Virus record (IMG/VR): IMGVR_UViG_3300043184_000117
DNA from: a virus
DNA: 52,745 nt
Reading direction: 5' to 3' (one strand)
The position numbers were made by a program, and so were the translations under genes. Positions 2,454 through 52,745 of this stretch are shown here, piece after piece (position 1 is the stretch's first letter; every line of letters begins with the position of its first letter). The notes under the pieces are model-generated. The model was given only the letters and a program-made list of their open reading frames with translations, made no database searches and was not told where the DNA came from.

Positions 2454-2786
2454 CTATTCTATTTTTGTCAAACTATAGCGATCATCGAGTTCTGGGCATG
2501 TTTCTTGATACTCAATTAAAAAAGCAATATTAGTTAGCACATGAGCAAGATGTGATTTTCCACTCTCAGAATCTACATCCTCCCCACTCCAATATTTGAG
2601 TAAGTGTCTCATAGCTGATGCATAGCAAATTGAGTGAGCCATACCTTTTCGCCAATTATGCAATTCATATTTTTCTGCACCAACTGTAAGAACTTCTGCA
2701 AGCGCTAATATTGCAGACGTCGGTACCAAATCTACTCTAGGTTTACCTTTATTGTATCGCAATCCCCCACCTTTTGCTTCACTCAT
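2454..2786 (-). CDS. DUF5664-type dATP/dGTP pyrophosphohydrolase-like protein
   Basis: GGLRYNKGKPRVDLVP...GAEKY..NWRKG...RHLLKY...D.ESGKSHLAHVLTNIAFLIEY matches the phage DUF5664 pattern. Start moved to MSEAKGG (RBS GGAGG; ATGAGTGA overlap with the upstream stop). Confidence 0.55.
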   Translation of the reverse strand: MSEAKGGGLRYNKGKPRVDLVPTSAILALAEVLTVGAEKYELHNWRKGMAHSICYASAMRHLLKYWSGEDVDSESGKSHLAHVLTNIAFLIEYQETCPELDDRYSLTKIE

Positions 2787-2976
2787 AAGTTGCCTCCAAT
2801 ATCTTAAGTACACCTAATAAGTCACAAATTTTTTGATCACACCTTTCGATTGTGCTCATGTAAATTCCTATTGAGATAGGATTGTAGACTTCTTTAGAAA
2901 ATGCAATTACTAAATCCCTGGCATTTTCATATTCTCTAATACGCGCTTTAATTTCTTTTATTTCATCTTTAATCAT
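2779..2976 (-). CDS. Hypothetical protein (65 aa)
   Basis: ORF track; translationally coupled on both sides. Confidence 0.55.
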   Translation of the reverse strand: MIKDEIKEIKARIREYENARDLVIAFSKEVYNPISIGIYMSTIERCDQKICDLLGVLKILEATYE

Positions 2977-5956: not shown

Positions 5957-6260
5957 CCATTATGTAAATAACAGGTTCGTCATTTTCAATACAAATAGAA
6001 ATTGTACCAAAAACTTTAACAATGTCCATAAAAGCTTCGGCACAATCTAACTCCCAAACTTTTTTTGTTGGGTATTTATTTTTTAATTCGTCTTCTAATG
6101 TGTTTAACTTATCGTTAATTTCACGCCATTTTTCTGTTTCGTGTTTTTTCGGGGCTTCGCCTAATATTTCCACGCTTTTTTGCTTCCACTCATTAAAAAA
6201 TGCTTTACGATCAGCTAGGTCAATAGGCTTATCGAGAACATGATATACTTTAAATAACAT
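5922..6260 (-). CDS. Hypothetical protein (112 aa)
   Basis: ORF track. Confidence 0.55.
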   Translation of the reverse strand: MLFKVYHVLDKPIDLADRKAFFNEWKQKSVEILGEAPKKHETEKWREINDKLNTLEDELKNKYPTKKVWELDCAEAFMDIVKVFGTISICIENDEPVIYIMDVADTNEKDSE

Positions 6261-6283: not shown

Positions 6284-8356
6284 CTAGTGTTTAGCTTCTT
6301 CGTCAATTAGTTTAGGATTAATGTGGTAGTAGGTTGTGTTTTTTCCATCAACTCTTCCCCGGCAAGGAGATCCTAATAGGTTTACTAATGTGTCACAAAA
6401 TACATGCTTATTAATGCTATATTTATAGCCGTTATTTGAAATCCAAAGAGAAAATTGTTTGTATAAATTATTTCTAGACACTCTTGTAAAAGTTTCATCT
6501 TTTTCTAGGGTTAAGCCCTCTTCTTTAATAAAATGCTCTAGAGGAGTGTGATATTTAAAAGTTTGCTGTTCTTCCTCAAATTCTTTAAATACTGGTTTAA
6601 TAAAAGGCTCAGATTGAGATTCATCAATACTTTGCCACATATTGAGGTAATTTAGTGCGTTAATTTCTTCCCAATCCATCTTATCTAATGTATTTATTTG
6701 AAAAAACCGACGAACAGAGGTGGCGTCTTTAATGACATATTGTAGGTTCAGATTGGATGCGCCTATAAACGTTGAATTGTTATCGCCCACGGCATTACTA
6801 TTTGTGCCTAATCTTCTGTATTGAATTTTTTCAGAAGTTATTTTATTTTTTATGCTTTCTACATCAGCTGTTTCTGCTTTACTCATTTCATCAATAAAAT
6901 ATACAAAATAGTTAATCAAATTAAAAGCTTCTCTAGTGTCTACTAGCTTTTTAAAGTCGCCATCATAATAAACTAGCTCGTGTATAGGATGTAACATTTT
7001 TTTAATTAGTTGAGATTTTCCACTCCCAGATTTGCCTACTAAAACTGGCATATTGTGATAACTTACAGAAATGCCGTAAATTTTACGCTTAACCTGCCAT
7101 AAAAAATGCTTTAAAACGGCAACATGTAAAGTACTATTAGATCCTGTTATTGCTTTTACCAATCTCTCAAAATCAAATTCAGCACTAGGATTAAACGCTA
7201 TATATGATTTTAATTCTTCAAATCGAACTTGTTTTTTGTCAGTACTAAGTTTATTTAAAATAGACGAAATAATTTGAAAACTGATGTTTTTTCCCATAAT
7301 TGTTTGAGAGTAGTTACGTATCTCCTCTAAAACATACTCAATATCTCTTTTGTGCCCGTCTAGATAAAACTGCCCATCAAGGTTAACTGTTAGAAATTTT
7401 TCTGCCATAAAAGTATTAACTATTTCTTGATCAGGAATAGGAGCTAATTTACCATTTTTATCAGTATACCGCATCTTTAGCGGATGCATACTGCCTACCA
7501 TAGATGTATCATAGTTCCAATTTTTATCGGTATAACAATAGCTTATTTGGTACGTATCTTCCTCTGATAAATGCCCAGTAATTTTTCTTATTTTATCTTC
7601 ACACTCCTGCCTAGTAAACCCAGCGGCTTTTAAGTTTTTTACAGCTAAATTCCTATTGGTGTGCCATTCACCGTCGGGCGCACCTGATTGTAAAAATAGC
7701 AAAGTTCGTTTACTGAGTTTTTGTATTTTAGTTTGATCGTCATTGAGGGGGCTTTTAAAAATGGCGGTTTGTGTGGCGCGGTAGTTACTGTTTGTTGGGC
7801 TAATTACTTTTATTCTTTTAACATCTATTTTATTGTGATTAAAAAAGAGCTCTACAGTAGCGGTATTTGAATTAAAAAAAAGATTAGCTGGAGAACAGGT
7901 TTGAGCGTCGTTGTTATTTCTAAAAACGGTAGAAGCTATAAAATTGTAGGTAGCTTTGTACTCTTCTTCAGTAGTTATTAGGGTGCTTGTTGGCATTATT
8001 ACATGAAATTTATCCTCTCCCCAGACTTGGTGGGAATAAGATGTGTATACCGCAAACTCATATCCAGACATGTCTAACTCTACTAAGCAAGAATTTAAAT
8101 CAATCCCACTATCTACATCTAAAACAATAATATTTGTGGATATAAAATTTGCCCTAGCTCTACGACCATCTTTCATTTCTGAGGGAGTAATCGGGACTTC
8201 TGAGGCGCGCTTAGCTACCTCCTCAATAGTTTCAAATTGTTCAGTTTGTCCTTGAATGCAAAACCTACCCCTATCTGCTTTATGAGCTTTTAGTGCCTCT
8301 GGATCTTTAGTTTTAATGTTTAAGGATCCATTAGGATAAGTTGTTATTTTAAACAT
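6284..8356 (-). CDS. Primase-helicase (VirE/BT4734-like N-terminal primase domain plus D5/P4-type P-loop NTPase)
   Basis: RRARANFISTNIIVLDVDS...FAVYTSYSH...KFHVIMP (VirE_N-like); VLVGKSGSGKS Walker A, FIDEM Walker B. Start moved to MFKITTY (RBS AAGGAGA). Confidence 0.8.
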   Translation of the reverse strand: MFKITTYPNGSLNIKTKDPEALKAHKADRGRFCIQGQTEQFETIEEVAKRASEVPITPSEMKDGRRARANFISTNIIVLDVDSGIDLNSCLVELDMSGYEFAVYTSYSHQVWGEDKFHVIMPTSTLITTEEEYKATYNFIASTVFRNNNDAQTCSPANLFFNSNTATVELFFNHNKIDVKRIKVISPTNSNYRATQTAIFKSPLNDDQTKIQKLSKRTLLFLQSGAPDGEWHTNRNLAVKNLKAAGFTRQECEDKIRKITGHLSEEDTYQISYCYTDKNWNYDTSMVGSMHPLKMRYTDKNGKLAPIPDQEIVNTFMAEKFLTVNLDGQFYLDGHKRDIEYVLEEIRNYSQTIMGKNISFQIISSILNKLSTDKKQVRFEELKSYIAFNPSAEFDFERLVKAITGSNSTLHVAVLKHFLWQVKRKIYGISVSYHNMPVLVGKSGSGKSQLIKKMLHPIHELVYYDGDFKKLVDTREAFNLINYFVYFIDEMSKAETADVESIKNKITSEKIQYRRLGTNSNAVGDNNSTFIGASNLNLQYVIKDATSVRRFFQINTLDKMDWEEINALNYLNMWQSIDESQSEPFIKPVFKEFEEEQQTFKYHTPLEHFIKEEGLTLEKDETFTRVSRNNLYKQFSLWISNNGYKYSINKHVFCDTLVNLLGSPCRGRVDGKNTTYYHINPKLIDEEAKH

Positions 8357-8438
8357 AAAATATATCTCCTTGATATGGTTCATACTACTAGATGATTTTT
8401 AGAAAGTAAAGTACTGTAGCATTGGAAATCACCTCAAA

Positions 8439-10911: not shown

Positions 10912-11126
10912 ATATCCAAAGAATAAAGTTTTATCTATCAATAAAATGTAGTATTCAAGGCAACGGAAAAACAGAATTTAATTACATAGACACATCCGTC
11001 GATCCTTATATTATTACACTTAAAGATAATTTAGTAAATATAACCCACACATCAACCAATGAGGAAACGTTTACTACACTGAGTAATGTGGTTTACTTTA
11101 CCAAGGTAAATGAAAAATCTAAATAA
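10908..11126 (+). CDS. Hypothetical protein (72 aa) directly upstream of terL (small-terminase position, no motif support)
   Basis: ORF track; overlaps both neighbours by a few nt. Confidence 0.5.
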   Translation: MNIQRIKFYLSIKCSIQGNGKTEFNYIDTSVDPYIITLKDNLVNITHTSTNEETFTTLSNVVYFTKVNEKSK

Positions 11127-13533
11127 AGAGCAAATAAAGTTATATATTGAGGAAGCTAAAAAACGGCTACGGGTGCCGTTTGAAATCAATAATTTTTGCT
11201 TTGACAAGCAATTAAATTTTATTAATGATCCAGCTAGATATAAAACTGCTGTATGTAGTCGTCGATGCTTAGCTGAAAACACCCTAGTTCAAACAACGGA
11301 AGGACCTAAAAAAATTCAGGATATAAAAATTGGAGATTGGGTTTTTGATGAAAACATGAAACCAATTAAAGTTGTTAAAGTGTTTAATAACGGTAAAAAA
11401 GAAGTTGTTGAAGTTTTGCATAATAATAAAATAATGTTTGAAGCCACAACTAACCATGTAATGTTAACCTATCACCCAAGGGCTGGAGGAGTAAAGCAAC
11501 GTCCGCTTAAGAATTTTTATGACGGAGTTAAGATAGTAAGAAATGAAGTAGATCGTAATAATGGCAAAGCTGTAAAATATGCATATGCTATAGGCGCACT
11601 ATTAGGGGATGGGTGTAGTAGAGTAAATTATAAAAGTTATATAACTATATCATCAGAAGATGAAATTATCCCAAATAAAGTTGGTGAATTATTGAATGCA
11701 AGCAGAATCCATAAGTGTCATACAAGTAATTATAATTATTCTATCTACTTAGACAGCATTCCACAAATTTATTTAGATTGGTGTAATACTAGATACGCGC
11801 ATGAGAAAGTATGTGATATTAATGAAATTCTAACGTGGGATAGACCTTCAAGGTTGGCATTTATTGCTGGGCTAATTGATACCGATGGATCAGTGTGCAA
11901 CGCAGCTGACGGCATTCAAATTGATATTAGCATGCAAGCAAAATCAGTTATTGAAGCAGCCCAACTATTATTTCTAGACTTATGGCAATTTAGCCCATCT
12001 ATTTTAGTTGATAGTAGACCTAAATATAAAAACGGTCCCGTATATGTGTTAAGATTTAAACATAATTACTTTGGTAAAAAAATACTTAAAGATTTAGATC
12101 CATATCTCATGACACTACGTAAAAAATGGAAAAGCGAGTATGAGTTTAAATTAGAAAATAATTATAATTCTAAATACGTAGGAGTAGTGTTTGGAAAAAC
12201 CTCAATAAAGCATACTTACGATATCCATGTCGACTCACCATCAAATTTATACATGTTAGCTAATGGATTAATTACTCACAATTCTGGTAAATCTGTAAGT
12301 TGCGCCGCACATCTTGTATCTCAATGCACATCTAAAAAAAATCAAAAATGCTTATATATAACATTAACTCGCGGTACTGCTAAAAAAATTGTATGGAAAG
12401 AGATAAATGAGATTATAAAACTACATAATTTAAACGTTGAAACTAATGGCACTGACCTAACAATGACGTTCCTAGACACAAACTCAATTATATATTTTTC
12501 TGGAGCTAGTAAAAAAGACGAAGTTGAAAAGTTTCGAGGCTTATCATTAAACCTAGTGTATATTGATGAGGTGCAATCATTTAAACCTTTTATAAAAGAG
12601 TTAATTGATGAAGTATTGGCTTACACCGTTTTGGATACCGCCGGCACCATTGCTTTAATTGGAACGCCTGGACCAATACCAGGCGGGTTTTTTTACGAGA
12701 CTTCCCACTCGATAGGCTGGAGCAACCACAAATGGACTGTATTTGATAATCCCCATATTAAACTTAAAACAGGATTAGAACCTGAAGAATTATTAAGGCA
12801 AGAGCGCGAGCGTCGTGGTATTAGTGAAAACGATCCTGCCTACTTACGAGAGGCTCTTGGAATGTGGATTCAAGATTCTGACTCGTTAGTATTTAAATAC
12901 AACCCTAGTATTAACAACTACGATAAATTACCAGATGAGGAATTGGTTCATATTTTTGGAGTAGACTTAGGATATAATGATTCTGATGCAATAGCAGTAT
13001 TAGGCTACTCACGCATTCAAAAAAAAGTATTTTTAGTTGAAGAATGGGTCAAGGATAAGCAGGGTATTACCGAACTTGCTGAACAAATTAAACTGATGAT
13101 CAACAAGTATAAGCCCGTCAAAATAAAGATCGATGCTGGTGCTTTAGGTAAGAAGATTAGTGAAGAATTAATTAGGCGTCATCAAATTCCAGTAGAAGCA
13201 TCTGACAAACACAGAAAATTAGAGTATATTGAGTTTATGAACGACGACCTCCGTACTGGCAAATTTTTAATAAAATCTAACAGTATTACTGCACACGATG
13301 CAATGCTTATGACCTGGGATATACGAACTAAAGATAAACGCACGGTATCCGATCAATTTCACTCCGATATACTTGATGCGGTTTTATATGCTCACCGTGA
13401 GGCAAAACATTATTTTGCCGAAGCTCCAATAAAAGTATACAAATCTGATGAAGTTAAAGTTAACGAGTTTTGGGAAAAAGAAGCCCAGGAATTAGAGCAA
13501 AAAAAATTGAAAGCGGAATGGTGGGATCAGTGA
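11110..13533 (+). CDS. terL: Terminase large subunit, interrupted by an intein (468-aa extein plus 339-aa intein)
   Basis: The spliced junction restores the Walker A SRR|SGKS (cf. T4 gp17 SRQLGKT). LVYIDEV Walker B, ALIGTPG coupling motif, C-terminal nuclease-like FGVDLGY...D. Confidence 0.9.
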   Translation: MKNLNKEQIKLYIEEAKKRLRVPFEINNFCFDKQLNFINDPARYKTAVCSRRCLAENTLVQTTEGPKKIQDIKIGDWVFDENMKPIKVVKVFNNGKKEVVEVLHNNKIMFEATTNHVMLTYHPRAGGVKQRPLKNFYDGVKIVRNEVDRNNGKAVKYAYAIGALLGDGCSRVNYKSYITISSEDEIIPNKVGELLNASRIHKCHTSNYNYSIYLDSIPQIYLDWCNTRYAHEKVCDINEILTWDRPSRLAFIAGLIDTDGSVCNAADGIQIDISMQAKSVIEAAQLLFLDLWQFSPSILVDSRPKYKNGPVYVLRFKHNYFGKKILKDLDPYLMTLRKKWKSEYEFKLENNYNSKYVGVVFGKTSIKHTYDIHVDSPSNLYMLANGLITHNSGKSVSCAAHLVSQCTSKKNQKCLYITLTRGTAKKIVWKEINEIIKLHNLNVETNGTDLTMTFLDTNSIIYFSGASKKDEVEKFRGLSLNLVYIDEVQSFKPFIKELIDEVLAYTVLDTAGTIALIGTPGPIPGGFFYETSHSIGWSNHKWTVFDNPHIKLKTGLEPEELLRQERERRGISENDPAYLREALGMWIQDSDSLVFKYNPSINNYDKLPDEELVHIFGVDLGYNDSDAIAVLGYSRIQKKVFLVEEWVKDKQGITELAEQIKLMINKYKPVKIKIDAGALGKKISEELIRRHQIPVEASDKHRKLEYIEFMNDDLRTGKFLIKSNSITAHDAMLMTWDIRTKDKRTVSDQFHSDILDAVLYAHREAKHYFAEAPIKVYKSDEVKVNEFWEKEAQELEQKKLKAEWWDQ
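11266..12282 (+). mobile_element. Class 1 intein with LAGLIDADG homing endonuclease, inserted in the TerL P-loop
   Basis: Starts with Cys (CLAENTLV, block A); TTNHVM (block B TxxH); two dodecapeptide motifs IGALLGDGCS and IAGLIDTDGS; ends ..GLITHN followed by Ser (+1). Confidence 0.88.
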
Positions 13534-30640: not shown

Positions 30641-33592
30641 TTACTTAGTTCCAAATGTTTGAGATTGATTAAGTTTTCCAGTTCCAGACTTTAATCCTAC
30701 CTCAAAATTTAAATTAGATAAAGATAGCCCTCTCCCGTAAGTATCGTTTTGGAGTTCAGTTATTTTGATCCTAATAGACTGGGCTTTTTGTACATTCATA
30801 TCTACACGAAATTGATAAGCATTTAACAATCCAGGACCGCCATATAAGGCATCCGATCCATAAGTGGCAGAGTTGCCATAAGTAGATGAGTTAATAAACG
30901 CATCACTATCAATCACTTTTTCACTAATAAATGAGTTATTATAATTATAGGCACATTGCACCATTATTTTGTGTTTACTATAAAATTCACCCAAGCCTAA
31001 CATTTTGTAAACACGTTGAAATCCCTGAATTCCTGCAAAACTCAGCCACCCAGTGTCCACCTGCAGACTAATTGGCTCACTATTGTCCAAATATGAACCA
31101 TCCTCAAAAAATATCATACCATCGTTTCTTAAATACACGTAATTATTAATAAGAATTTCAGCATCTTTTCCACTGTGGTTGTCAAAAATACTCCAGCGCT
31201 CTACATAAAGATCATAAACTAACGCTAGGTTACTTGATGTAAGAAATCTTACTTGATTGTTATTAGGAACCAATGTAGCAGCTGTTACTGTTAGATTATT
31301 ATAGGCTTCTACTTCAGCACCAATATAAGTTAAGCTCGCACCTCTATCAAGTAAATAGATCCCTTTTTCAGACTTAAACATTAAGCCTTTGGGAGTTATA
31401 ACTATTGAGGAAGGGTCGGTACATCCGACATCAGATGCAATCCTGTCGGGAGATCCGAAATCATCTTGCTGCCCTAGGTCGTTTGGTCCGTTACCAGACA
31501 AAATAAACAACGATGAGCGCTTAAATATAACTAATTTATCATCTAATACACCTAAGCCGGTTATTGGTCCGCCCTGGTTACTTATTGTCAATCTAAAAAA
31601 ATCTGAAAATTGGGCAGGGTTTCCAGGGACAAATAGCTTGGAAAACGCAATTTGTTGCGCATTTTCAAGCCCTGCAAGTACAATTCTGTTTTTCCAGTTT
31701 GTGATAATTGAGGCGTTAGGGGCGGGATCATTGTCAAGAACTCCGCCAGTAGTATAAAGCAACTCATTACTTAATATAGTAGCGTCTGCAAGTGTATCAA
31801 CAAATGTTATTGAGTCTACGCTTGTGTTGTTGAATGTGGGGCTTGTTGTAGAGCTTACTTTATAAAAAAGCGTACCGTTCGACTCTGTTCGATATACCTC
31901 AATAAATACATTAGTTTTATATGTTAGCCTTAGTGTTGGAATAATAACTTCTTGGGCATGCGTAGCTCCTCCGGTACTAATTACTTTAGTTTGAGGGATA
32001 GATACTGCGCTTCGATGCAGCTGACCGCGATTATCATACCACGCATAAACTGCAGCATATTGATATGTGCCTGACGCAATAAACCCGCCAGTAGTTTGTG
32101 TTACCCCAAATGTTACATTTTCTGGATAAAGAAAAAAATTATCTTCAGTTACTACCGACCCATCATAATTTTTAAGTATACCACCAGTCACATACAAATT
32201 TTGACCTAATCCCGAATCTTGATAATTTAAAGATGGATTAAAATTTACAAGTGTTCTATTTACACCGTATGTAGATGCAAATGTTGTGCCATTTGATTGA
32301 ACGTTTGATTTTATTTGATTTACACACATAAATTGCCCGTTAGACAATATAGGAAATAAATCTAAACTATTTTGCTCAATTACAGTACCACCAACACCTA
32401 CACTAAATCTTCCTTGAATTTCACCACTAATAGTCGATAAAAAATAAGTGGATTGAAGAGAAGACTCATGCACTAAAAGTGTATACTGTACGCCTTGGTT
32501 TTGAAATAATTTACTAGCCTGCCCAACCGATCTTAAAAAAACACTTGGTGTCCCAACTACGCCTGCTAAAGTTACAGTATTTTTTTTAACAAAATAATTA
32601 GACGCTGGAGAAGCGGTTACTGTGTAAAGAATAGTTTGTGATGTGCTACTAGTACTGATAGCGCTTAGATTGTTTACGTTAGCGATTGTTTCAATAATTG
32701 TAGCACCTAAAAGTACGGCACCTAGTGTATAACTAAAGCATGCCATTTTTACAGCCGTACCATTGTAGTATGATACCCAAATTCTAAATTGATCGTCAGT
32801 GTTTATTGATACGGTGACTGTTGCGGTTTCTCCGGTAATACTCACTGATGAAGAAAGAGCGTCTGTTTCATCAATATAGAAAACTTGTAAAGGATTACCC
32901 AATGATGACTGGTAAGCTACATAAATTCTATTATTTAAGGATACAATGTCGTATCTGGGGTTAGAGGCGCTTAAGTTGTTAACGATCGTAACTTCACTCA
33001 ATATTACCGACGGATTAGCTGAATTAACTTTACGATATTTAATTGCTGTACCTTCAGTAAAGAAAAAATAAAAAAAGTTTTGATTGGAGACTAACTTTGG
33101 ATTATCCCCACCCGCAGTAAGCGGTTGGTCGGATTGAAACAATGTATTAGTATCAAGATCGGATATTGAAAACCGGCAGCCGCCTCTACTATCTTTCCAC
33201 GCGTAAGCGCCAATATTAAAATTAGCGTCACACGTTAATTTAGTTGCATTATATGCGTTTCTCATTATTGAGGAGGACTCGACATTAAGATTAAACATTA
33301 CACCTTTATCAATCCATTTTTGAGTATTACTAGAGTACGAAAATAACCTTTCGTTACCAAAAGCAATTAGTTCATTGTTAAATGCGGCAAGAGATTCTGG
33401 CGTGGGAATTTTTTGTCCATTTATATCGTAGGTTGGATAGGCACTGTATCCGTTTCTTTTTTTTATTTGTTTTGGAGAAGTATATACGCCATTTACAATT
33501 GAATATAGTTGACCAATGTCTAGCTGCTTTTCATCAATTTTGGTGTTCATTCCACCAGAAAAATTGATAGGAAGTGACTGTTTTTGTAACAT
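30641..33592 (-). CDS. Tail tubular protein B / nozzle-like protein (983 aa)
   Basis: N-terminus LPINFSGGMNTKID...NGV......KKRNGY is reminiscent of T7 gp12 (GGISQQP..NG....KRP); size and position. Confidence 0.45.
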   Translation of the reverse strand: MLQKQSLPINFSGGMNTKIDEKQLDIGQLYSIVNGVYTSPKQIKKRNGYSAYPTYDINGQKIPTPESLAAFNNELIAFGNERLFSYSSNTQKWIDKGVMFNLNVESSSIMRNAYNATKLTCDANFNIGAYAWKDSRGGCRFSISDLDTNTLFQSDQPLTAGGDNPKLVSNQNFFYFFFTEGTAIKYRKVNSANPSVILSEVTIVNNLSASNPRYDIVSLNNRIYVAYQSSLGNPLQVFYIDETDALSSSVSITGETATVTVSINTDDQFRIWVSYYNGTAVKMACFSYTLGAVLLGATIIETIANVNNLSAISTSSTSQTILYTVTASPASNYFVKKNTVTLAGVVGTPSVFLRSVGQASKLFQNQGVQYTLLVHESSLQSTYFLSTISGEIQGRFSVGVGGTVIEQNSLDLFPILSNGQFMCVNQIKSNVQSNGTTFASTYGVNRTLVNFNPSLNYQDSGLGQNLYVTGGILKNYDGSVVTEDNFFLYPENVTFGVTQTTGGFIASGTYQYAAVYAWYDNRGQLHRSAVSIPQTKVISTGGATHAQEVIIPTLRLTYKTNVFIEVYRTESNGTLFYKVSSTTSPTFNNTSVDSITFVDTLADATILSNELLYTTGGVLDNDPAPNASIITNWKNRIVLAGLENAQQIAFSKLFVPGNPAQFSDFFRLTISNQGGPITGLGVLDDKLVIFKRSSLFILSGNGPNDLGQQDDFGSPDRIASDVGCTDPSSIVITPKGLMFKSEKGIYLLDRGASLTYIGAEVEAYNNLTVTAATLVPNNNQVRFLTSSNLALVYDLYVERWSIFDNHSGKDAEILINNYVYLRNDGMIFFEDGSYLDNSEPISLQVDTGWLSFAGIQGFQRVYKMLGLGEFYSKHKIMVQCAYNYNNSFISEKVIDSDAFINSSTYGNSATYGSDALYGGPGLLNAYQFRVDMNVQKAQSIRIKITELQNDTYGRGLSLSNLNFEVGLKSGTGKLNQSQTFGTK
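32276..32291 (-). promoter_or_regulatory. Perfect sigma-54 consensus TGGCAC-AACAT-TTGCA inside the nozzle gene
   Basis: Forward tgcaa-atgtt-gtgcca; codes NGTTFA in frame. Confidence 0.35.
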
Positions 33593-36917: not shown

Positions 36918-38132
36918 TTAAACTTTAATGTTAACGTTATAGCCCGGGGCACGACAACCTAAATTCCCATAAAATCCATACCTTACCTCAACACCATCAG
37001 CGTTAGCCTGTCTTAACATTTGGAGACCGTCAGAGTCAATAACTCTTACAGCTTTTCCAAGTGAATAAAGCTTCCACATATCCATTTGAAGTCCAAAGAT
37101 TCTATCAGAAGGACAGTTTTGATCAGGGATGCACTTGATAGGTCCACGTGGTCCATTGATCATGATACCTCTGAAACCGATTTCAGCCTTAACTTGAAGA
37201 TCAATATATTGAACTTTAGAACCAAGAGCTTTTTCAAGTTCAGCATACTTTTCGTAAGACATAAAAAAGTGGTCAATCTTAGCGCCTTCACGAGCAGCTA
37301 AAGCAGCAGCATCGATCAACGCTTCTTCGATTGGCAATGCACTTCCATCAATTCTTAATCCACCCAAACGAGTATCAACCGAACGGTCAACGCCAAAAAA
37401 TGGAGTAGAAGTAGGAGTTGTAGAAGGAATCCAAGCCTCAAGACCAGAAACTTTTAATCTTACTGGAGTAGCTGAGTTTTCTCTATCACCTTGAACAAAC
37501 AAGAAATCATTAGCAGCTAAGCCAGTGATACCAGCAGCACTATCAACAGTGATTGTTCCAGCAGTACGATCAACAGCAACAATAATTGCAGATCCAGCTC
37601 TAAGTACAGAAGATCCTTGAGTAGCAGAAGCAACTAGAACCATCCCAACTTCAAAGTTAGTTACTGACTCTTCAGATAAAAGAGTGATTGTGTTTGAGCT
37701 AATTGAAGCAACTTGACCGATGTCACCAAAACCTGAACGGAAAAGAGCGGTAGCAAGTGAACGTGTTAAAGTATTGATTGCTCCATCAATTTCTGTTGTA
37801 GCGGCTTCCATAAATGCGTTTGCGTTGCCTTTAGAAGCTTCAAGAGTTTCGTTATCAATAGTAGCGATTGAGTAGTCTTTAACCCTTGTAAGTACGAAGT
37901 CAGCCAATTTAGAATTGGTTACTTGTCCACGAGTTTGAGCGTTAGTAAAACTTGCGCTTCGTCCTTGTGGGTTACCATAAATTAGAGGAATTGGCAAATT
38001 TCGTCCACCAAAATCTTCCATCTTTTTAACTAAAGCCAAAAATGGATTGTCTTTGTAGACCATCATTTCTACTGTATCATTTGTGTAATGCTGCTTAAGT
38101 GCGGCATCAAAACTGACTAAATCTAAACTCAT
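36918..38132 (-). CDS. Major capsid protein
   Basis: 404 aa, directly after the scaffold gene, followed by the strongest terminator in the genome; no motif check possible. Confidence 0.7.
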   Translation of the reverse strand: MSLDLVSFDAALKQHYTNDTVEMMVYKDNPFLALVKKMEDFGGRNLPIPLIYGNPQGRSASFTNAQTRGQVTNSKLADFVLTRVKDYSIATIDNETLEASKGNANAFMEAATTEIDGAINTLTRSLATALFRSGFGDIGQVASISSNTITLLSEESVTNFEVGMVLVASATQGSSVLRAGSAIIVAVDRTAGTITVDSAAGITGLAANDFLFVQGDRENSATPVRLKVSGLEAWIPSTTPTSTPFFGVDRSVDTRLGGLRIDGSALPIEEALIDAAALAAREGAKIDHFFMSYEKYAELEKALGSKVQYIDLQVKAEIGFRGIMINGPRGPIKCIPDQNCPSDRIFGLQMDMWKLYSLGKAVRVIDSDGLQMLRQANADGVEVRYGFYGNLGCRAPGYNVNIKV

Positions 38133-39373: not shown

Positions 39374-41263
39374 CTAACCTTGTGGTAACAAATCGCTTAC
39401 TGGTGGCGCTTCGGGCACTGCCTGCGGGACTTCAGGCTGCTCCGGTTGAGGGGGTTGGGCGGCTTCGATTAGTGCCGCGGAATCCTCAATAAACCTACGT
39501 AAAAGCTCCAACTTTTCCTCTTCAACGCGACGCGTTTTGGCTTTTAGATAATATGATTGAGCGATTTGAATACACAGTTGAGGGTTCATAAATGGTTCTG
39601 GAGCCGAATATTCATCGGTTTCCATAATGTGCTCAATTACAGCGTGGATGTCGTTCCAAGCCGCAAGTTCCATATCCATGGCGTCTTCAATATCTGGGAA
39701 ATCCAACAGAGCTTTTGCGGTTGTTTGATTAATCATGCCAGATTGAAGTAATTCTTGAACTTTTTGCAAGCGACCCGCTGGTTGAGTTGGTAACAGCGAG
39801 GCGGGGTAGAGTTGTAGTAAAAATTGATCTTGACCGACTTTAATGTCTTTCCACTTTATCTCTTCAATTAAATTAGATCCTGGAACGGTTATTGAGAGTT
39901 GCGGGTTAAGTTCGGCTAGTTCTGATGCTAAATCAATTATTTGTTCACCTAGTTGAATGAAACAATCTTCGTAATGTTGCGACACTAGTGCAAATCTTTC
40001 TGTTTCAATGTCCTGGTATTCTCTCAATGCTACCCCTGAATTTAATCCGGCGGGTTTTTGTGAAGATGCGGATAATTGAGAAATGCCGGTAATGCTAAAG
40101 GCTTTGTTAAACAAAGTTTCAAGATGATTATACAACTCACTAGGCATGGCGTTGGCAGTAACAATATCAGGCTTTGTGCCAGTATACTTAACAATACTGC
40201 CGATTTTATTATTGATGTGATCTTCAACCACGCTTGAACCAGATTCAATTAGGACCCTTGGCACACATGCTAAATTTTGCGCAGACTGGATATCTCGCAA
40301 AAGTTTATTTATTTCAATCTGAATGCCTAACAATTCCTCACCTAGTCCCATGCCGAAAAAACCTAGTAGTTTGCGCGACCATCGCATAATTATAAATGGA
40401 AAATAATCGCGCTCATAGGGCTCACTCAATAATGTGCAATTTTCAATAGTAATACAGTGTCTGCCATCTTTGGCATTTTTACCTGATCTTAAATGCCAGG
40501 ATTCTCTAACTACAGCCATATCTCCACTAAAAGAAGAGGGCAGTGCTCGATCAAATTTTATCTGACCGCTAGCATTGAGGATTTCTTGCGCCTTTTCTGG
40601 AAACATGTCGATTAGGACATCTTTGCTTATGTATTTAATTTGGTGCATTTGGCGAGGTTTGCCATAAACGCCTTCAGCATCGTCAACAATTAACTCATTG
40701 ATAAATACTCGCTCAGTATGTATCCGCTCACCGTCATGGTATACTTTTACAGCACCTGTGCCAAACACTGCGGCATCTTGGAATGCTGCACTCATTTCTT
40801 GGTACGCATTAGAATCCTTAAATACCCCAGCAATAAATTTACTCAATTTTTTACTACGTTGCTGTAAACTCCAGCTGCCACCAGATGTTAAAGCTATTAC
40901 TCTTGGGCGCATTTTAGCAATTTTACTACACGCGGTATCTACACACGCCTTAACTACATTATAACTAATACGATTGCTAATAGCGGTTTGGTTAGTACGA
41001 TCATATAAACCGACTCCAAAACCTAGTATTTCTTGGTTAGCATAAAGTCGGGCGTAGCGTAGATTTTGAATTTGGCGATAAGATTGAGATTCAATAATCC
41101 CGTTGGTTACGGCGGTAATGTGCAAAAATTGATCTTCTTCCGGTTCTTTCCACCACTGAGATTTGATGCTGCCGGCTTGCGTATTTGTGTTTACGTATTC
41201 TTTAATAACTTTAGTTTTGCTATCATATTCGACCGACTTTTCAACGACTTTATTTTTAGCCAC
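39374..41263 (-). CDS. Portal protein
   Basis: 629 aa, first large gene of the morphogenesis block upstream of scaffold and capsid; GTG start with GAGG RBS; proline-rich C-terminus. Confidence 0.65.
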   Translation of the reverse strand: MAKNKVVEKSVEYDSKTKVIKEYVNTNTQAGSIKSQWWKEPEEDQFLHITAVTNGIIESQSYRQIQNLRYARLYANQEILGFGVGLYDRTNQTAISNRISYNVVKACVDTACSKIAKMRPRVIALTSGGSWSLQQRSKKLSKFIAGVFKDSNAYQEMSAAFQDAAVFGTGAVKVYHDGERIHTERVFINELIVDDAEGVYGKPRQMHQIKYISKDVLIDMFPEKAQEILNASGQIKFDRALPSSFSGDMAVVRESWHLRSGKNAKDGRHCITIENCTLLSEPYERDYFPFIIMRWSRKLLGFFGMGLGEELLGIQIEINKLLRDIQSAQNLACVPRVLIESGSSVVEDHINNKIGSIVKYTGTKPDIVTANAMPSELYNHLETLFNKAFSITGISQLSASSQKPAGLNSGVALREYQDIETERFALVSQHYEDCFIQLGEQIIDLASELAELNPQLSITVPGSNLIEEIKWKDIKVGQDQFLLQLYPASLLPTQPAGRLQKVQELLQSGMINQTTAKALLDFPDIEDAMDMELAAWNDIHAVIEHIMETDEYSAPEPFMNPQLCIQIAQSYYLKAKTRRVEEEKLELLRRFIEDSAALIEAAQPPQPEQPEVPQAVPEAPPVSDLLPQG

Positions 41264-41549: not shown

Positions 41550-41807
41550 TTATATGTCTCCATTTATATCAAACTTTTCATGATAGAACAATAAGTCATC
41601 CTCAATTTCTTCTACCGATTTTTCTTTAGGTTTAGTAGGTTGAGGGAGTTGCAGATCTTCGGTTTCTTCGGGGGTTACGCTCAGTATTTGTTTAATAGAC
41701 GGCGGTTTAGGATTTGGACATGCAAGTTTGATGCCATCCATTTCTAGTTGTGTGATGCCGTGGGTATTCATTAGTTTCATAATTGCGGAAAGTTCGGCAA
41801 GTTTCAT
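41550..41807 (-). CDS. Hypothetical protein (85 aa)
   Basis: ORF track. Confidence 0.55.
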   Translation of the reverse strand: MKLAELSAIMKLMNTHGITQLEMDGIKLACPNPKPPSIKQILSVTPEETEDLQLPQPTKPKEKSVEEIEDDLLFYHEKFDINGDI

Positions 41808-42779: not shown

Positions 42780-42995
42780 TTACTTAGTAGTTAAGTCTTC
42801 CTTAATATCTAACCCATCCAGGTACATTCGCATGCAAAACATGCCCCACTCCAACGAACCTACTAAACTGGCATCATAGTGTAATGCAAACGCCTCAACC
42901 AACACATCTTGGTTGCGCTGTACATAATTGATAAAGGCTGGCGTGGTGCCTAGATCGACCGTGATTTTGCGTAAGCGAGCGGGCGAATGTTTCAT
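42780..42995 (-). CDS. Hypothetical protein (71 aa)
   Basis: ORF track. Confidence 0.55.
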   Translation of the reverse strand: MKHSPARLRKITVDLGTTPAFINYVQRNQDVLVEAFALHYDASLVGSLEWGMFCMRMYLDGLDIKEDLTTK

Positions 42996-43180
42996 ACTAT
43001 GCCTTTAATTAAAAAACTAGGCGACGTTGTGCGCCACCTAGCCACAAAAAGGAGTAGGGGGTCGTCATCCCCTAAATTTATTTTACTACAAACCCACATT
43101 GAAGTCAACAAAACGGTGCCGTTGGCGTAACTATTTAATTTTATTATACGCCCATCTAAACTCTCCTCTAAATGTAGCAT
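42992..43180 (-). CDS. Hypothetical protein (62 aa), first ORF after the non-coding hub
   Basis: ORF track. Confidence 0.5.
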   Translation of the reverse strand: MLHLEESLDGRIIKLNSYANGTVLLTSMWVCSKINLGDDDPLLLFVARWRTTSPSFLIKGIV

Positions 43181-43416
43181 AATTTGCTTTTACCTGGTAG
43201 TGCCGATTATTTTAAACCACACCATGAACATCGTAAAATCAACTACAATGCATTTCACTGCCAACCCCAACCTAACCTACCCACCGCCAATACTGGAGAG
43301 TTTAAGGCGGTACTTTGTTTGAATTAGGGGTATCAATGGGGGTGGTGATCGTACACCGCGGAATGGTAAAATTGATAGGTATTTATTGTGTGGTTGATTT
43401 CGCCCTGACCAACCCA
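43181..43416 (-). other. GC-enriched non-coding leader with C-rich/G-rich arms around an ACCGCC...GGCGGT hairpin
   Basis: ccaaccccaacctaacctacccaccgcc (43261-43288), hairpin 43283-43311, then ggggtatcaatgggggtggtg (43327-43347); no ORF longer than 13 codons on either strand. Confidence 0.5.
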
Positions 43417-43560
43417 TTATATATTACAAAAAATAAAAAATCTATATATAGTATATATCCTTAAGTTTTTACAAAAAAAAACAACAACAGTATATTTTAG
43501 GACCTTTTTTTGTATAATTTCAAGGGTTTAGGTTGTTTACTTTTTGTTGCTCTAGTGTTG
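43417..43560. repeat. Inverted repeat copy B (144 bp); partner is 8439-8581
   Basis: See copy A. The orientation points the same end of the element at the downstream operon in both places. Confidence 0.9.
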
Positions 43561-43727
43561 CATTAATAGCTTTTTGTGCAAATTTGTTCCTTTTTGTAAC
43601 CGCCTGAAATTACACACCACTACCATAATATCAATAAGTTGCACCACTAGATTTGCCAATACCTGTTTGATATGTCTAACAAAAGTTTGAGTAGAGAGAC
43701 ACCCTCAATGGGGTCATTGGTTGCATT

Positions 43728-43743
43728 TGCAAGATTGGTGCCA
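43728..43743 (-). promoter_or_regulatory. Sigma-54 (RpoN) type promoter, perfect consensus TGGCAC-CAATC-TTGCA
   Basis: Forward tgcaa-gattg-gtgcca; exact -24 GG / -12 GC spacing. Confidence 0.6.
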
Positions 43744-43757
43744 CATTTCATGTACGC

Positions 43758-43773
43758 TGCAAAACTGGTGCCA
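43758..43773 (-). promoter_or_regulatory. Sigma-54 (RpoN) type promoter, perfect consensus TGGCAC-CAGTT-TTGCA
   Basis: Forward tgcaa-aactg-gtgcca. Confidence 0.6.
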
Positions 43774-43790
43774 TTATGACACTACACCAT

Positions 43791-43806
43791 TGGCACCATT
43801 ATTGCA
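43791..43806 (+). promoter_or_regulatory. Sigma-54 (RpoN) type promoter, perfect consensus TGGCAC-CATTA-TTGCA, pointing antisense to the early genes
   Basis: Read directly on the plus strand. Confidence 0.55.
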
Positions 43807-43859
43807 TGTAAAAATACGGGGGCTGTTTTTATTGATGAAGGCTAAAAAACCGGGGGTGG

Positions 43860-44084
43860 TTAAAATACCCACACGACCTCACGCGCCCACTCATCAATTT
43901 GAGCACGGGCTTGCGCCACATCCGAATCTGTTAAATCTTTTGGCAACTTATACAAAAGGTCGACAACTTGCAATTCGCCGTCAGTGTCCTCCATAGCGAC
44001 CGCCTCAATCTTAACCCTGACAGTATGGTCTAAACCATCCAGCTCTAAATCAATTGACTCAGTAAACGATTTGAAGGTTTGCAT
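43860..44084 (-). CDS. Hypothetical acidic protein (74 aa), last gene of the early series
   Basis: ORF track; RBS AAGGAG 7 nt upstream. Confidence 0.6.
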   Translation of the reverse strand: MQTFKSFTESIDLELDGLDHTVRVKIEAVAMEDTDGELQVVDLLYKLPKDLTDSDVAQARAQIDEWAREVVWVF

Positions 44085-44635: not shown

Positions 44636-44971
44636 TTATTCGTGTAGATTGAGGTAGATGTCATGGACCCAATGCGCCCACAAATGCCAACACTTACCAT
44701 TGATTTCCGCCATCACTTCTTCCATTTGAGCTTCTGTCAACTCTGCCGAACTTGTATTCATTTGAAAATACACCACGTGGGTCAACTCGTGTGCTACATC
44801 AGCGTGGTCCATATCGTTCATTATAAACGTAACTACCTTTGGCTTAAACTCGGTTATAGCAGCACTGTCGGATCCATAAAGTTTGCAATATTTGGCGCGC
44901 GGCAACGTCCTAAACGTCCACTCCTCATTCAATATCTTACGCTTTATTTCTTTCACACAATCTCCCATCAT
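44636..44971 (-). CDS. Mini zinc-metallopeptidase-like protein (HExxH)
   Basis: DVAHELTHVVYF contains HELTH; 111 aa. Confidence 0.45.
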   Translation of the reverse strand: MMGDCVKEIKRKILNEEWTFRTLPRAKYCKLYGSDSAAITEFKPKVVTFIMNDMDHADVAHELTHVVYFQMNTSSAELTEAQMEEVMAEINGKCWHLWAHWVHDIYLNLHE

Positions 44972-52453: not shown

Positions 52454-52745
52454 CTAATGTGATTCTCTTAAATTTTTACCAACAGTGGGTGGCGCCTTCA
52501 ATTTAACTGGTAAACTAATAGCATTTTCCATACATAATTGTACCACTTCGCTTACAGCTTGTACATCACTAGACCTACACTCAATAACCAACTGATCATG
52601 AATATTGAGAAGGATGTGTGCGTCCAATTTTTTAAATTTAAGCGCCCTAGATACCGCAATTGAAGCCCTATTGACTATACTTGCGGATAATGATTGGATT
52701 TGAAAGTTGCGTCCATTACCAATATAGTTTTTCATTCTATTTCTA
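52454..52745 (-). CDS. polA: C-terminal end of the polA gene (same ORF as 1-2037 across the circular junction)
   Basis: LLNIHDQLVIEC is pol motif C. The Met at 52735 is internal: 52619-52745 duplicates 1-127 and the frame is continuous. Confidence 0.9.
   Translation of the reverse strand, partial: RNRMKNYIGNGRNFQIQSLSASIVNRASIAVSRALKFKKLDAHILLNIHDQLVIECRSSDVQAVSEVVQLCMENAISLPVKLKAPPTVGKNLRESH
52619..52745. repeat. Terminal direct repeat, identical to 1-127
   Basis: See 1-127. Confidence 0.9.

Follow-up and report, generated by a model that had tools for sequence, protein, structure and literature searches.

Clustered sigma-54-type sites at the early-virion junction of an uncultured podovirus-like phage and its relatives

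How might a phage switch on, or put to some other use, a sigma factor that is locked by default? To our knowledge, sigma-54 is the one bacterial sigma factor that is unable to start transcription without an ATP-driven activator, and its use by phages is known essentially from one studied case, the Pseudomonas aeruginosa phage YuA. The question is raised by IMG/VR virus record IMGVR_UViG_3300043184_000117, whose full 52,745 nt we refer to as the window and in which a preliminary description had noticed three perfect -24/-12 promoter cores, here named sites A, B and C. These sites sit in the gap separating a block of early and replication genes from the block of virion genes. We find that the motif is strongly enriched, that it is conserved in related phages with turnover of individual sites, and that no phage-encoded bacterial enhancer-binding protein (bEBP) is detectable in the window. 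One possible answer to the question is promiscuous, enhancer-independent activation that ties phage development to the state of the host, for instance to nitrogen, envelope or RNA-damage stress; others are a new class of phage activator and DNA-based sequestration of a host transcription factor.

Consensus -24/-12 cores in the window

A pattern search for TGGCACNNNNNTTGCW (TGGCAC-N5-TTGCA) recovered sites A, B and C at the positions, with the sequences and in the orientations first described, together with a fourth exact match elsewhere (Table 1). These four compare with 0.06 sites expected from dinucleotide shuffling, where the maximum was a single site in 100 shuffles, and three of the four fall within 80 bp; an earlier estimate of chance occurrence, about 0.01, was of the same order of magnitude. 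Sites A, B and C have the extended form TGGCACCA in common, as had been claimed, and each carries GG at -24 and GC at -12 with the exact 10-bp spacing. The arrangement also stands as described, with two sites directed toward the virion block and the third placed back-to-back with them, antisense into the last early gene. The -24 ends of B and C are 17 bp apart, and the A-B spacing of 30 bp falls at the top end of a same-strand peak, 25-29 bp, in the phage arrays described below.

The original list of sites was correct for these three but incomplete. It left out the fourth exact site, a near-consensus site with one mismatch upstream of the portal gene, and the C that follows TGGCAC in all three cores. 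The fourth exact site is in a variable, indel-rich part of the encoded protein and is not conserved in the relatives L001, L008 and L009; it could be lineage-specific or a chance match. The near-consensus site scores 15.8 bits with a position-specific scoring matrix (PSSM) derived from Salmonella, and no site with at most one mismatch occurs in the matching stretch of L006 or L019. The PSSM was built from the 29 Salmonella sites in PMC3844500, a small set, and gives 16.0 bits for site A and 17.5 for site C, both inside the range of native promoters (15.8-23.4), and 9.3 for site B, which is below it. Shuffled windows contain 0.2 sites of at least 16 bits, and the perfect TGGCAC-N5-TTGCA core is present in only 2 of the 29 Salmonella intergenic sites.

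Conservation in relatives and arrays in other viral contigs

Relatives were fetched through the portal protein, with few more contributed by a metagenome scan; the ends of the fetched loci are unreliable as contig ends, save for L001, L017 and L019. Every relative for which the region was available has a comparably large non-coding region (NCR) before a module of small open reading frames (ORFs) and the portal gene, with sigma-54-type sites inside it; conservation in related genomes was a check that the preliminary description had proposed. Between 1 and 11 sites with variable spacers occur there even in relatives whose portal identity is as low as 43-46% and whose GC content differs. Closest are L006/L007 (82% portal identity), with three exact sites and one TGGCTC variant in the NCR. 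L001 (=L011) and L017 (71-72%) carry TGGCAC(C/G)ATTCTTGCA and, exactly 8 bp downstream of an 18-bp palindrome, TGGCAT-N5-TTGCA. In L018 (71%) an exact antisense site accompanies the palindrome and its TGGCAT site at the same 8-bp distance, so that L001, L017 and L018 each have one exact and one TGGCAT site. L008 (71%) has one exact antisense site and L009 (71%) one antisense site with a single mismatch (TTGCG). Farther away, L021 (46%, GC 53%) has a divergent region of 420 bp ahead of the portal operon that contains 6-7 sites, while 11 sites were counted in L077 and two each in L111, L101 and L107.

When the NCR of the window was compared with those of the relatives by short-word BLAST, alignment was confined to the palindrome and to the sigma-54 sites with a few adjoining bases. 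Site A has its ortholog at 1876-1898 of L006 and site B aligns to 1909-1934 of the same locus, while site C aligns to L006 at 1700-1717 and 1787-1806 and to L001 at 451-469. We read the alignable elements as a phylogenetic footprint. Relatives differ in N5 spacer, site number and site orientation, as is expected of factor-binding sites that turn over under selection, and the sites of the window are under selection. The most constant element is a site that comes soon after the last early stop codon and faces that gene. In the window this is site C, 54 bp from the stop codon; the distance is about 150 bp in L018, 84 bp in L008 and 50 bp in L009, and L006 has two such sites, at 89 and 176 bp.

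The cluster is not unique to this phage but one case of a pattern that is widespread in uncultured phages. Scanning IMG/VR for two exact sites 5-35 bp apart in tandem returned at least 120 viral contigs, and a scan for back-to-back exact pairs returned 57 contigs; a control scan with the reversed, non-complemented motif gave 1 match. Among the matches listed, the largest cluster in each of 157 new loci holds 2 to 11 sites (2 in 38 loci, 3 in 35, 4 in 18, 5 in 20, 6 in 13, 7 in 13, 8 in 5, 9 in 7, 10 in 3 and 11 in 5). The loci form 44 groups without a common flanking protein, with GC contents of 0.33-0.62, and are partly redundant in that about 54-68 of them represent one marine lineage. The spacing of neighboring sites has its same-strand peak at 25-29 bp, whereas face-to-face neighbors most often leave gaps of 4-5 bp and back-to-back ones gaps of 10 or 20 bp. 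BLAST of one array against cultured phages gave a chance 26-bp match only, and we found no published description of sigma-54 site arrays in phages.

The factor that recognizes these sites is, we predict with considerable confidence, sigma-54. A frequency matrix made from 762 distinct sites in the IMG/VR clusters matches, at positions that the search had left unfixed, the extended consensus YTGGCACGr...TTGCW: T precedes TGG in 60%, TGGCAC is followed by G in 65%, A in 30% and C and T in 2% each, and W follows TTGC. In sites with one or two mismatches, the changes are C to T (TGGCAT) and A to T (TTGCT), and GG and GC are kept in 97-99%. The array site TGGCACGACTTTTGCA is the core of the Sinorhizobium meliloti nifH promoter used in cryo-electron microscopy of sigma-54. 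That the same motif recurs over 44 unrelated groups of such different GC content points to a universal host factor and not to a phage-specific protein. The sigma-54 reading given earlier thus gains comparative support, with GG and GC invariant, the spacer variable, and TGGCAT and TTGCT tolerated. The enhancer site of NtrC (TGCACC-N5-GGTGCA) was considered and rejected as another identity for the motif, as the window sites read TGCAAR-N3-GGTGCC, with no dyad symmetry and the wrong spacing.

The abundant marine lineage (L042 at 5962-6146, also L048, L083, L156, L175 and about 50 more; GC about 46%) has an array made of a tandem repeat of about 46 bp, whose unit is a face-to-face sigma-54 pair, TGGCAC-N5-TTGCA-N5-TGCAA-N5-GTGCCA. 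This repeat occupies the main divergent intergenic region, 245 bp before a series of genes that encode an AT-hook protein of 131 aa, then an M15 peptidase, TerL and the portal, and the portal has only 24-28% identity to those of HMO-2011/CRP-type phages. In stretches of two other contigs, sites with at most one mismatch occur throughout, with 24 in 11 kb of the 63.8-kb contig L186, mostly on the coding strand, and 28 in 6.5 kb of the 147.5-kb contig L049. These phages may use sigma-54-type promoters genome-wide.

Possible functions of the sites

Our favored reading, to which we give an even chance, is that A, B and C are sites of the host RNA polymerase-sigma-54 holoenzyme (E-sigma54) that act as enhancer-independent promoters without a phage activator. 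The sites would be kept by selection in the NCR between the replication (early and middle) genes and the virion genes. There, we infer, E-sigma54 would occupy the high-affinity cores as poised closed complexes, and any active host bEBP would fire them, probably from solution and with no dedicated upstream site. Promoter activity at the tandem sites A and B would produce transcripts that enter the NCR toward the virion block and whose arrival there would need read-through of a strong terminator, and site C would yield an antisense or convergent transcript that opposes the last part of the early operon. It is established that bEBPs without DNA binding can activate from solution (PMC3844500). Given activation from solution and high-affinity cores, poised promoters fired by any active host bEBP would be the most economical mechanism. 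High-affinity promoters with T-rich spacers reportedly allow activation of this kind, as Buck and Cannon are said to have found in 1989. The proposal is favored as well by the YuA precedent and the nearby sigma-70 promoters of some relatives, both described below, and by the directions of sites in relatives and arrays: all sites of L111, L101, L001 and L017 are co-directional with the downstream structural operon, those of L021 face genes on either side, and several unidirectional arrays point at the next co-oriented operon.

The activator was sought in several ways. Neither Sigma54_activat nor any other AAA+ domain was found in the non-structural ORFs of the window that were scanned (29 with Pfam, 10 of these again with NCBIfam; most of at least 90 aa), and Pfam, PHROGs and NCBIfam revealed no bEBP, sigma-54-like or regulator gene among 39 of its non-structural ORFs of at least 50 aa (most of those longer than 90 aa). 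No GAFTGA or Walker-A bEBP motif is present in six frames of the window, and neither a GAFTGA loop nor an RpoN box in the window or the 189 fetched loci, where only chance GAFSGA strings in structural proteins were seen. These family and motif scans agree with the earlier remark that no AAA+ bEBP of the phage was seen. An upstream activator site was not recognizable in the NCR, with the 18-bp palindrome as a possible exception. The site cluster is a simple sequence marker and should restrict possible hosts to lineages that bear rpoN. An attempt to name the host from genome bins was rejected, since the labels of the metagenome-assembled genomes (MAGs) holding portal relatives (Peribacteria, Elusimicrobiota, Rhodobacteraceae, Saccharibacteria, archaea and others) clearly reflect mis-binning.

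Several observations weigh against enhancer-independent promoters. The C right after TGGCAC in A, B and C occurs in none of the 29 Salmonella promoters and in 2% of the 762 phage-array sites, and the Salmonella PSSM gives site B no more than 9.3 bits. Sites A and B lie about 700 nt upstream of the first ATG of the virion block at 42995, with a sigma-70-like promoter and a strong terminator between, and this layout means that any transcript started there would have to cross both the distance and the terminator to reach the virion genes. For the same reason, the proposal of sigma-54 control over late transcription has only partial support and is not established for this genome. Across relatives, the most consistently placed element is the antisense site. 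The close spacing of array neighbors puts many predicted starts inside the neighboring site, and clusters of mixed orientation show no outward bias (38 versus 42), which weakens a plain promoter model and does not exclude it. To these must be added that we found neither a phage bEBP nor a recognizable upstream activator site, and that the MAG labels of the portal relatives are inconsistent and uninformative as to the host.

Some of these same observations would also be accommodated if the sites bind sigma-54 or E-sigma54 for a job other than initiation, as a roadblock, landmark or decoy, a serious alternative though one that we consider less likely. Stable, silent closed complexes could mark a boundary at the end of the early operon or a fixed landmark near an origin or genome end, and at phage copy number the DNA could titrate the small cellular pool of sigma-54. 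The size of a closed-complex footprint is close to the array spacing, which would leave about one footprint per site; orientation often alternates, without outward bias; searches gave neither a bEBP nor an upstream activator site; what the clade conserves best is a site that directly follows the last early gene and is turned toward it; and the L001 and L017 contigs start inside the NCR. E-sigma54 is also described as binding promoters in an inactive state (PMC4591121). Against such a role, no phage is known to use sigma-54 sites as a decoy or roadblock, what the phage would gain is speculative, a window with just three sites would be a weak sponge, and the unidirectional clusters leading into a downstream operon (L103, L111, L112, L120, L127) resemble ordinary tandem promoters. 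A different DNA-binding protein whose 16-bp sites merely resemble sigma-54 promoters is unlikely. It could be a phage protein, for example a replication initiator acting on iterons beside an AT-rich unwinding region or a small terminase acting on cosB- or pac-like repeats near a genome end, or it could be another host factor, and its attraction is that the units occur in both orientations and adjoin an AT-rich segment with inverted repeats, that contig ends of relatives fall in the NCR, that the TGGCA and TTGCA blocks form an 11-bp-spaced quasi-direct repeat, and that the array of the marine lineage, just upstream of genes for a small AT-hook protein, TerL and the portal, recalls lambda cosB, which is an array of R sites. 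Phage-specific sites, however, co-evolve with their protein and differ by lineage, whereas here the same 11 bases, flanks and variants recur in 44 groups, and no conserved candidate binding protein co-occurs with the sites. A terminase array in particular fits poorly, the TerL gene of the window being 30 kb from the cluster and the motif identical across unrelated lineages. With regard to an iteron origin, the AT-rich inverted-repeat segment is 200-300 bp off, no initiator gene is adjacent, and the repeat is a universal host motif.

It is barely credible that the cluster has no function and arose by chance, or by recent local triplication of a sequence that happened to match the consensus. The common TGGCACCA and some flank similarity among the three sites would fit local duplication, and the fourth, intragenic site is not conserved; but 0.06 sites are expected per window, orthologous sites persist while the surrounding NCR has diverged beyond alignment, and independent lineages have clusters of their own. 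The conservation data already contradict this explanation. Turning back to sigma-54 as the recognized factor, we raise tentatively the possibility that close-packed clusters and arrays, found in this clade and at least 40 other groups of uncultured phage contigs, represent a common but so far undescribed device of phages that needs neither a dedicated enhancer nor a phage bEBP. Such a device could be a battery of promoters for whichever host bEBP is active, or for a non-AAA+ factor from the phage; or its DNA could serve as a sink or boundary at which scarce host sigma-54 holoenzyme is captured. Many phages may thus use or capture sigma-54 in a manner that has barely been studied.

Canonical sigma-54 promoters, such as S. 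meliloti nifH and enterobacterial glnK and pspA, have the same GG and GC blocks, spacing, variants and flanks as the phage sites; they are single, however, at 30-150 nt from the gene that follows, and are paired with a bEBP site farther upstream, whereas in the phages several sites are packed closely together in either orientation and no enhancer is visible. The primary origin of T7 has tandem promoters and an AT-rich region. Like it and lambda cosB, the NCR combines short repeated binding units with an AT-rich segment at a module boundary or genome end, but the T7 and lambda units are specific to their own polymerase or terminase, whereas the unit in the window is a universal host sigma-factor site across unrelated phages. 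In E. coli and Salmonella, intragenic or otherwise non-canonical sigma-54 sites are widespread (PMC4591121, PMC3844500); the holoenzyme binds them in sense and antisense orientation with no obvious tie to a gene start, and can remain silent there. Those non-canonical sites are isolated and mostly weaker, unlike the clustered, consensus-grade sites in the regulatory region of the phage.

The preliminary description held that a phage wired to host sigma-54 would be nearly unprecedented, which overlooked YuA. Dependence on sigma-54 alongside sigma-70 has been reported for this phage (Ceyssens et al. 2008, as cited in PMC10914365), and its GenBank record AM749441 annotates three active -24/-12 promoters in the late region. 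YuA resembles the phage of the window in its reported use of host sigma-54, which is predicted here, with no phage bEBP described; it is virulent and without an RNA polymerase of its own, and its three promoters are in or before the virion and lysis region. The YuA promoters are single and dispersed inside the late operon, whereas the sites of the window are perfect cores within 80 bp, bidirectional, restricted to the junction NCR and found clade-wide. None of the annotated YuA promoter fragments fits TGGCAC-N5-TTGCW within one or two mismatches, and the only exact site in the window with a YuA-like, intragenic placement is the non-conserved fourth one. YuA is moreover a siphovirus, unrelated to the SU10-like podovirus considered here. 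What is apparently new is the bidirectional clustering of consensus cores in a junction NCR, their conservation across a clade, and their membership of a larger population of arrays.

The surrounding non-coding region and genome

The early and replication genes are on the minus strand from 52735 to 43860, the last of them at 43860-44084, and the virion genes follow on the same strand from about 42995 to 15304. An ORF at 42992-43180 is probably not real, as it overlaps a sigma-70-like promoter and two hairpins, which makes the NCR about 0.86 kb long (42996-43859). Read along the minus strand from the last early stop codon, the NCR contains two G5 repeats, sites C, B and A, a short imperfect hairpin and the palindrome, and then a likely decayed site, an AT-rich stretch, the sigma-70-like promoter and the two hairpins (Table 1).

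Table 1. Coordinates of features in the window
Feature	Position	Strand	Remarks
Site A	43728-43743	-	TGGCACCAATCTTGCA; exact -24/-12 core, toward virion block; predicted start near 43717
Site B	43758-43773	-	TGGCACCAGTTTTGCA; exact core, tandem, 30 bp upstream of A; predicted start near 43747
Site C	43791-43806	+	TGGCACCATTATTGCA; exact core, back-to-back with B, antisense into last early gene
Fourth exact site	32276-32291	-	TGGCACAACATTTGCA; inside gene for 983-aa internal virion protein, sense orientation
Near-consensus site	41721-41736	-	TGGCATCAAACTTGCA; one mismatch (TGGCAT), inside 85-aa ORF upstream of portal gene
Direct repeats (family D4)	43809-43861		TAAAAAyaCGGGGGyKGTT, two copies 34 bp apart, G5 core; TAAAAATACGGGGGCTGTT, TAAAAAACCGGGGGTGGTT
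Palindrome	43664-43681		18 bp, imperfect; TGTTAGACATATCAAACA on minus strand; conserved across clade
Likely decayed sigma-54 site	43640-43658	-	TGGCAA-N8-GTGCA, spacing 3 nt too long; adjoins palindrome
AT-rich segment	43411-43547		several A/T inverted repeats
Sigma-70-like promoter	43080-43108	-	TTGACT-N17-TAAAAT, just upstream of terminator hairpins
Two hairpins	43015-43074	-	second is intrinsic terminator
Portal	39374-41263	-	Pfam SU10_portal on homologs
Major capsid protein	36918-38132	-
Internal virion protein	30641-33592	-	983 aa
TerL	11110-13533	+	807 aa, LAGLIDADG insertion
Primase-helicase	6284-8383

The G5 repeats, which separate site C from the stop codon with which the last early gene ends, form no hairpin and have no counterpart in the relatives. 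The palindrome (TGTTWGNYATAYCWAACA) is likely a protein-binding site and recurs in L001 (636-653), L017 (821-838), L018 (3635-3652), L008 (9972-9989), L006 (1839-1856, 2001-2018 and 2060-2077) and L009 (2275-2292 and 2306-2323). The element next to it is likely a decayed sigma-54 site, because the relatives have TGGCAT-N5-TTGCA there (L001 662-677, L017 847-862, L018 3661-3676). The AT-rich segment is a candidate origin or genome-terminus region; the L001 and L017 contigs both start in an AT-rich tract of their own NCR, which is not alignable to the window.

The second hairpin, running from 43043 to 43015, has a 12-bp G+C stem followed by U6 and ends 20 nt before the ATG at 42995. Its fold has a minimum free energy of -29.4 kcal/mol (z = -3.3), and none of 200 shuffles was as stable. 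A promoter followed by a terminator and then the late genes is an order reminiscent of lambda PR'-tR', which suggests that the virion block is controlled by antitermination. RNA folding downstream of the sites gave no significant structure near A or C, and the NCR had no significant match in Rfam, the sole one being IS128 RNA at E = 0.95.

In L001, L017 and L018, a strong co-directional sigma-70 promoter lies 35-66 bp after each sigma-54 site, which suggests dual-sigma transcription units. L017 (540-634 and 727-846) and L001 (543-660) also have a module, duplicated in the former, of a strong sigma-70 promoter, a perfect hairpin RNA of about 50 nt and a sigma-54 site. The hairpin (GGAAGUAGCG...CGCUACUUCC), whose second copy folds with z = -3.2, may act as a small RNA in regulation or antitermination.

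Since nt 1-127 are identical to nt 52619-52745, the window is a circularly closed assembly of a 52,618-bp genome, whose boundary splits a family-A DNA polymerase gene. From its genes the virus appears to be a podovirus-like phage, specifically an SU10-like podovirus. No cultured relative was found by DNA search or by tblastn of the portal and major capsid proteins against 50,697 cultured phage records, the primase-helicase gave only remote VapE matches, and ARAGORN found no tRNA gene in the window. Further genes encode a class I ribonucleotide reductase, ThyX, a dUTPase and an M15 endolysin. A 119-aa protein (2454-2813, minus strand) matches the N-terminal domain of dATP/dGTP diphosphohydrolase (PF18909, E = 6e-33), a family tied to nucleotide-pool editing in phages with modified DNA.

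An early protein of about 111 aa, which may be a small metalloprotease given its HExxH-like motif (AHELTH, AHEVMH), is conserved between the window (44636-44971, minus strand) and L018 (about 2000-2335), where it is absent from the called genes. TerL carries LAGLIDADG/homing-endonuclease-type domains at residues ~237-330, ahead of its Terminase_6N/6C parts; the TerL proteins of relatives are about 460 aa, and the insertion looks like an intein or homing endonuclease. Genes for Endonuclease VII or GIY-YIG nucleases adjoin the major capsid gene, following it in L005 (5586-6750), L009 (9662-10114) and L017 (7071-7478) and preceding it in L019 (5121-5717). This insertion is absent from the window and differs among close relatives, and the genes look mobile.

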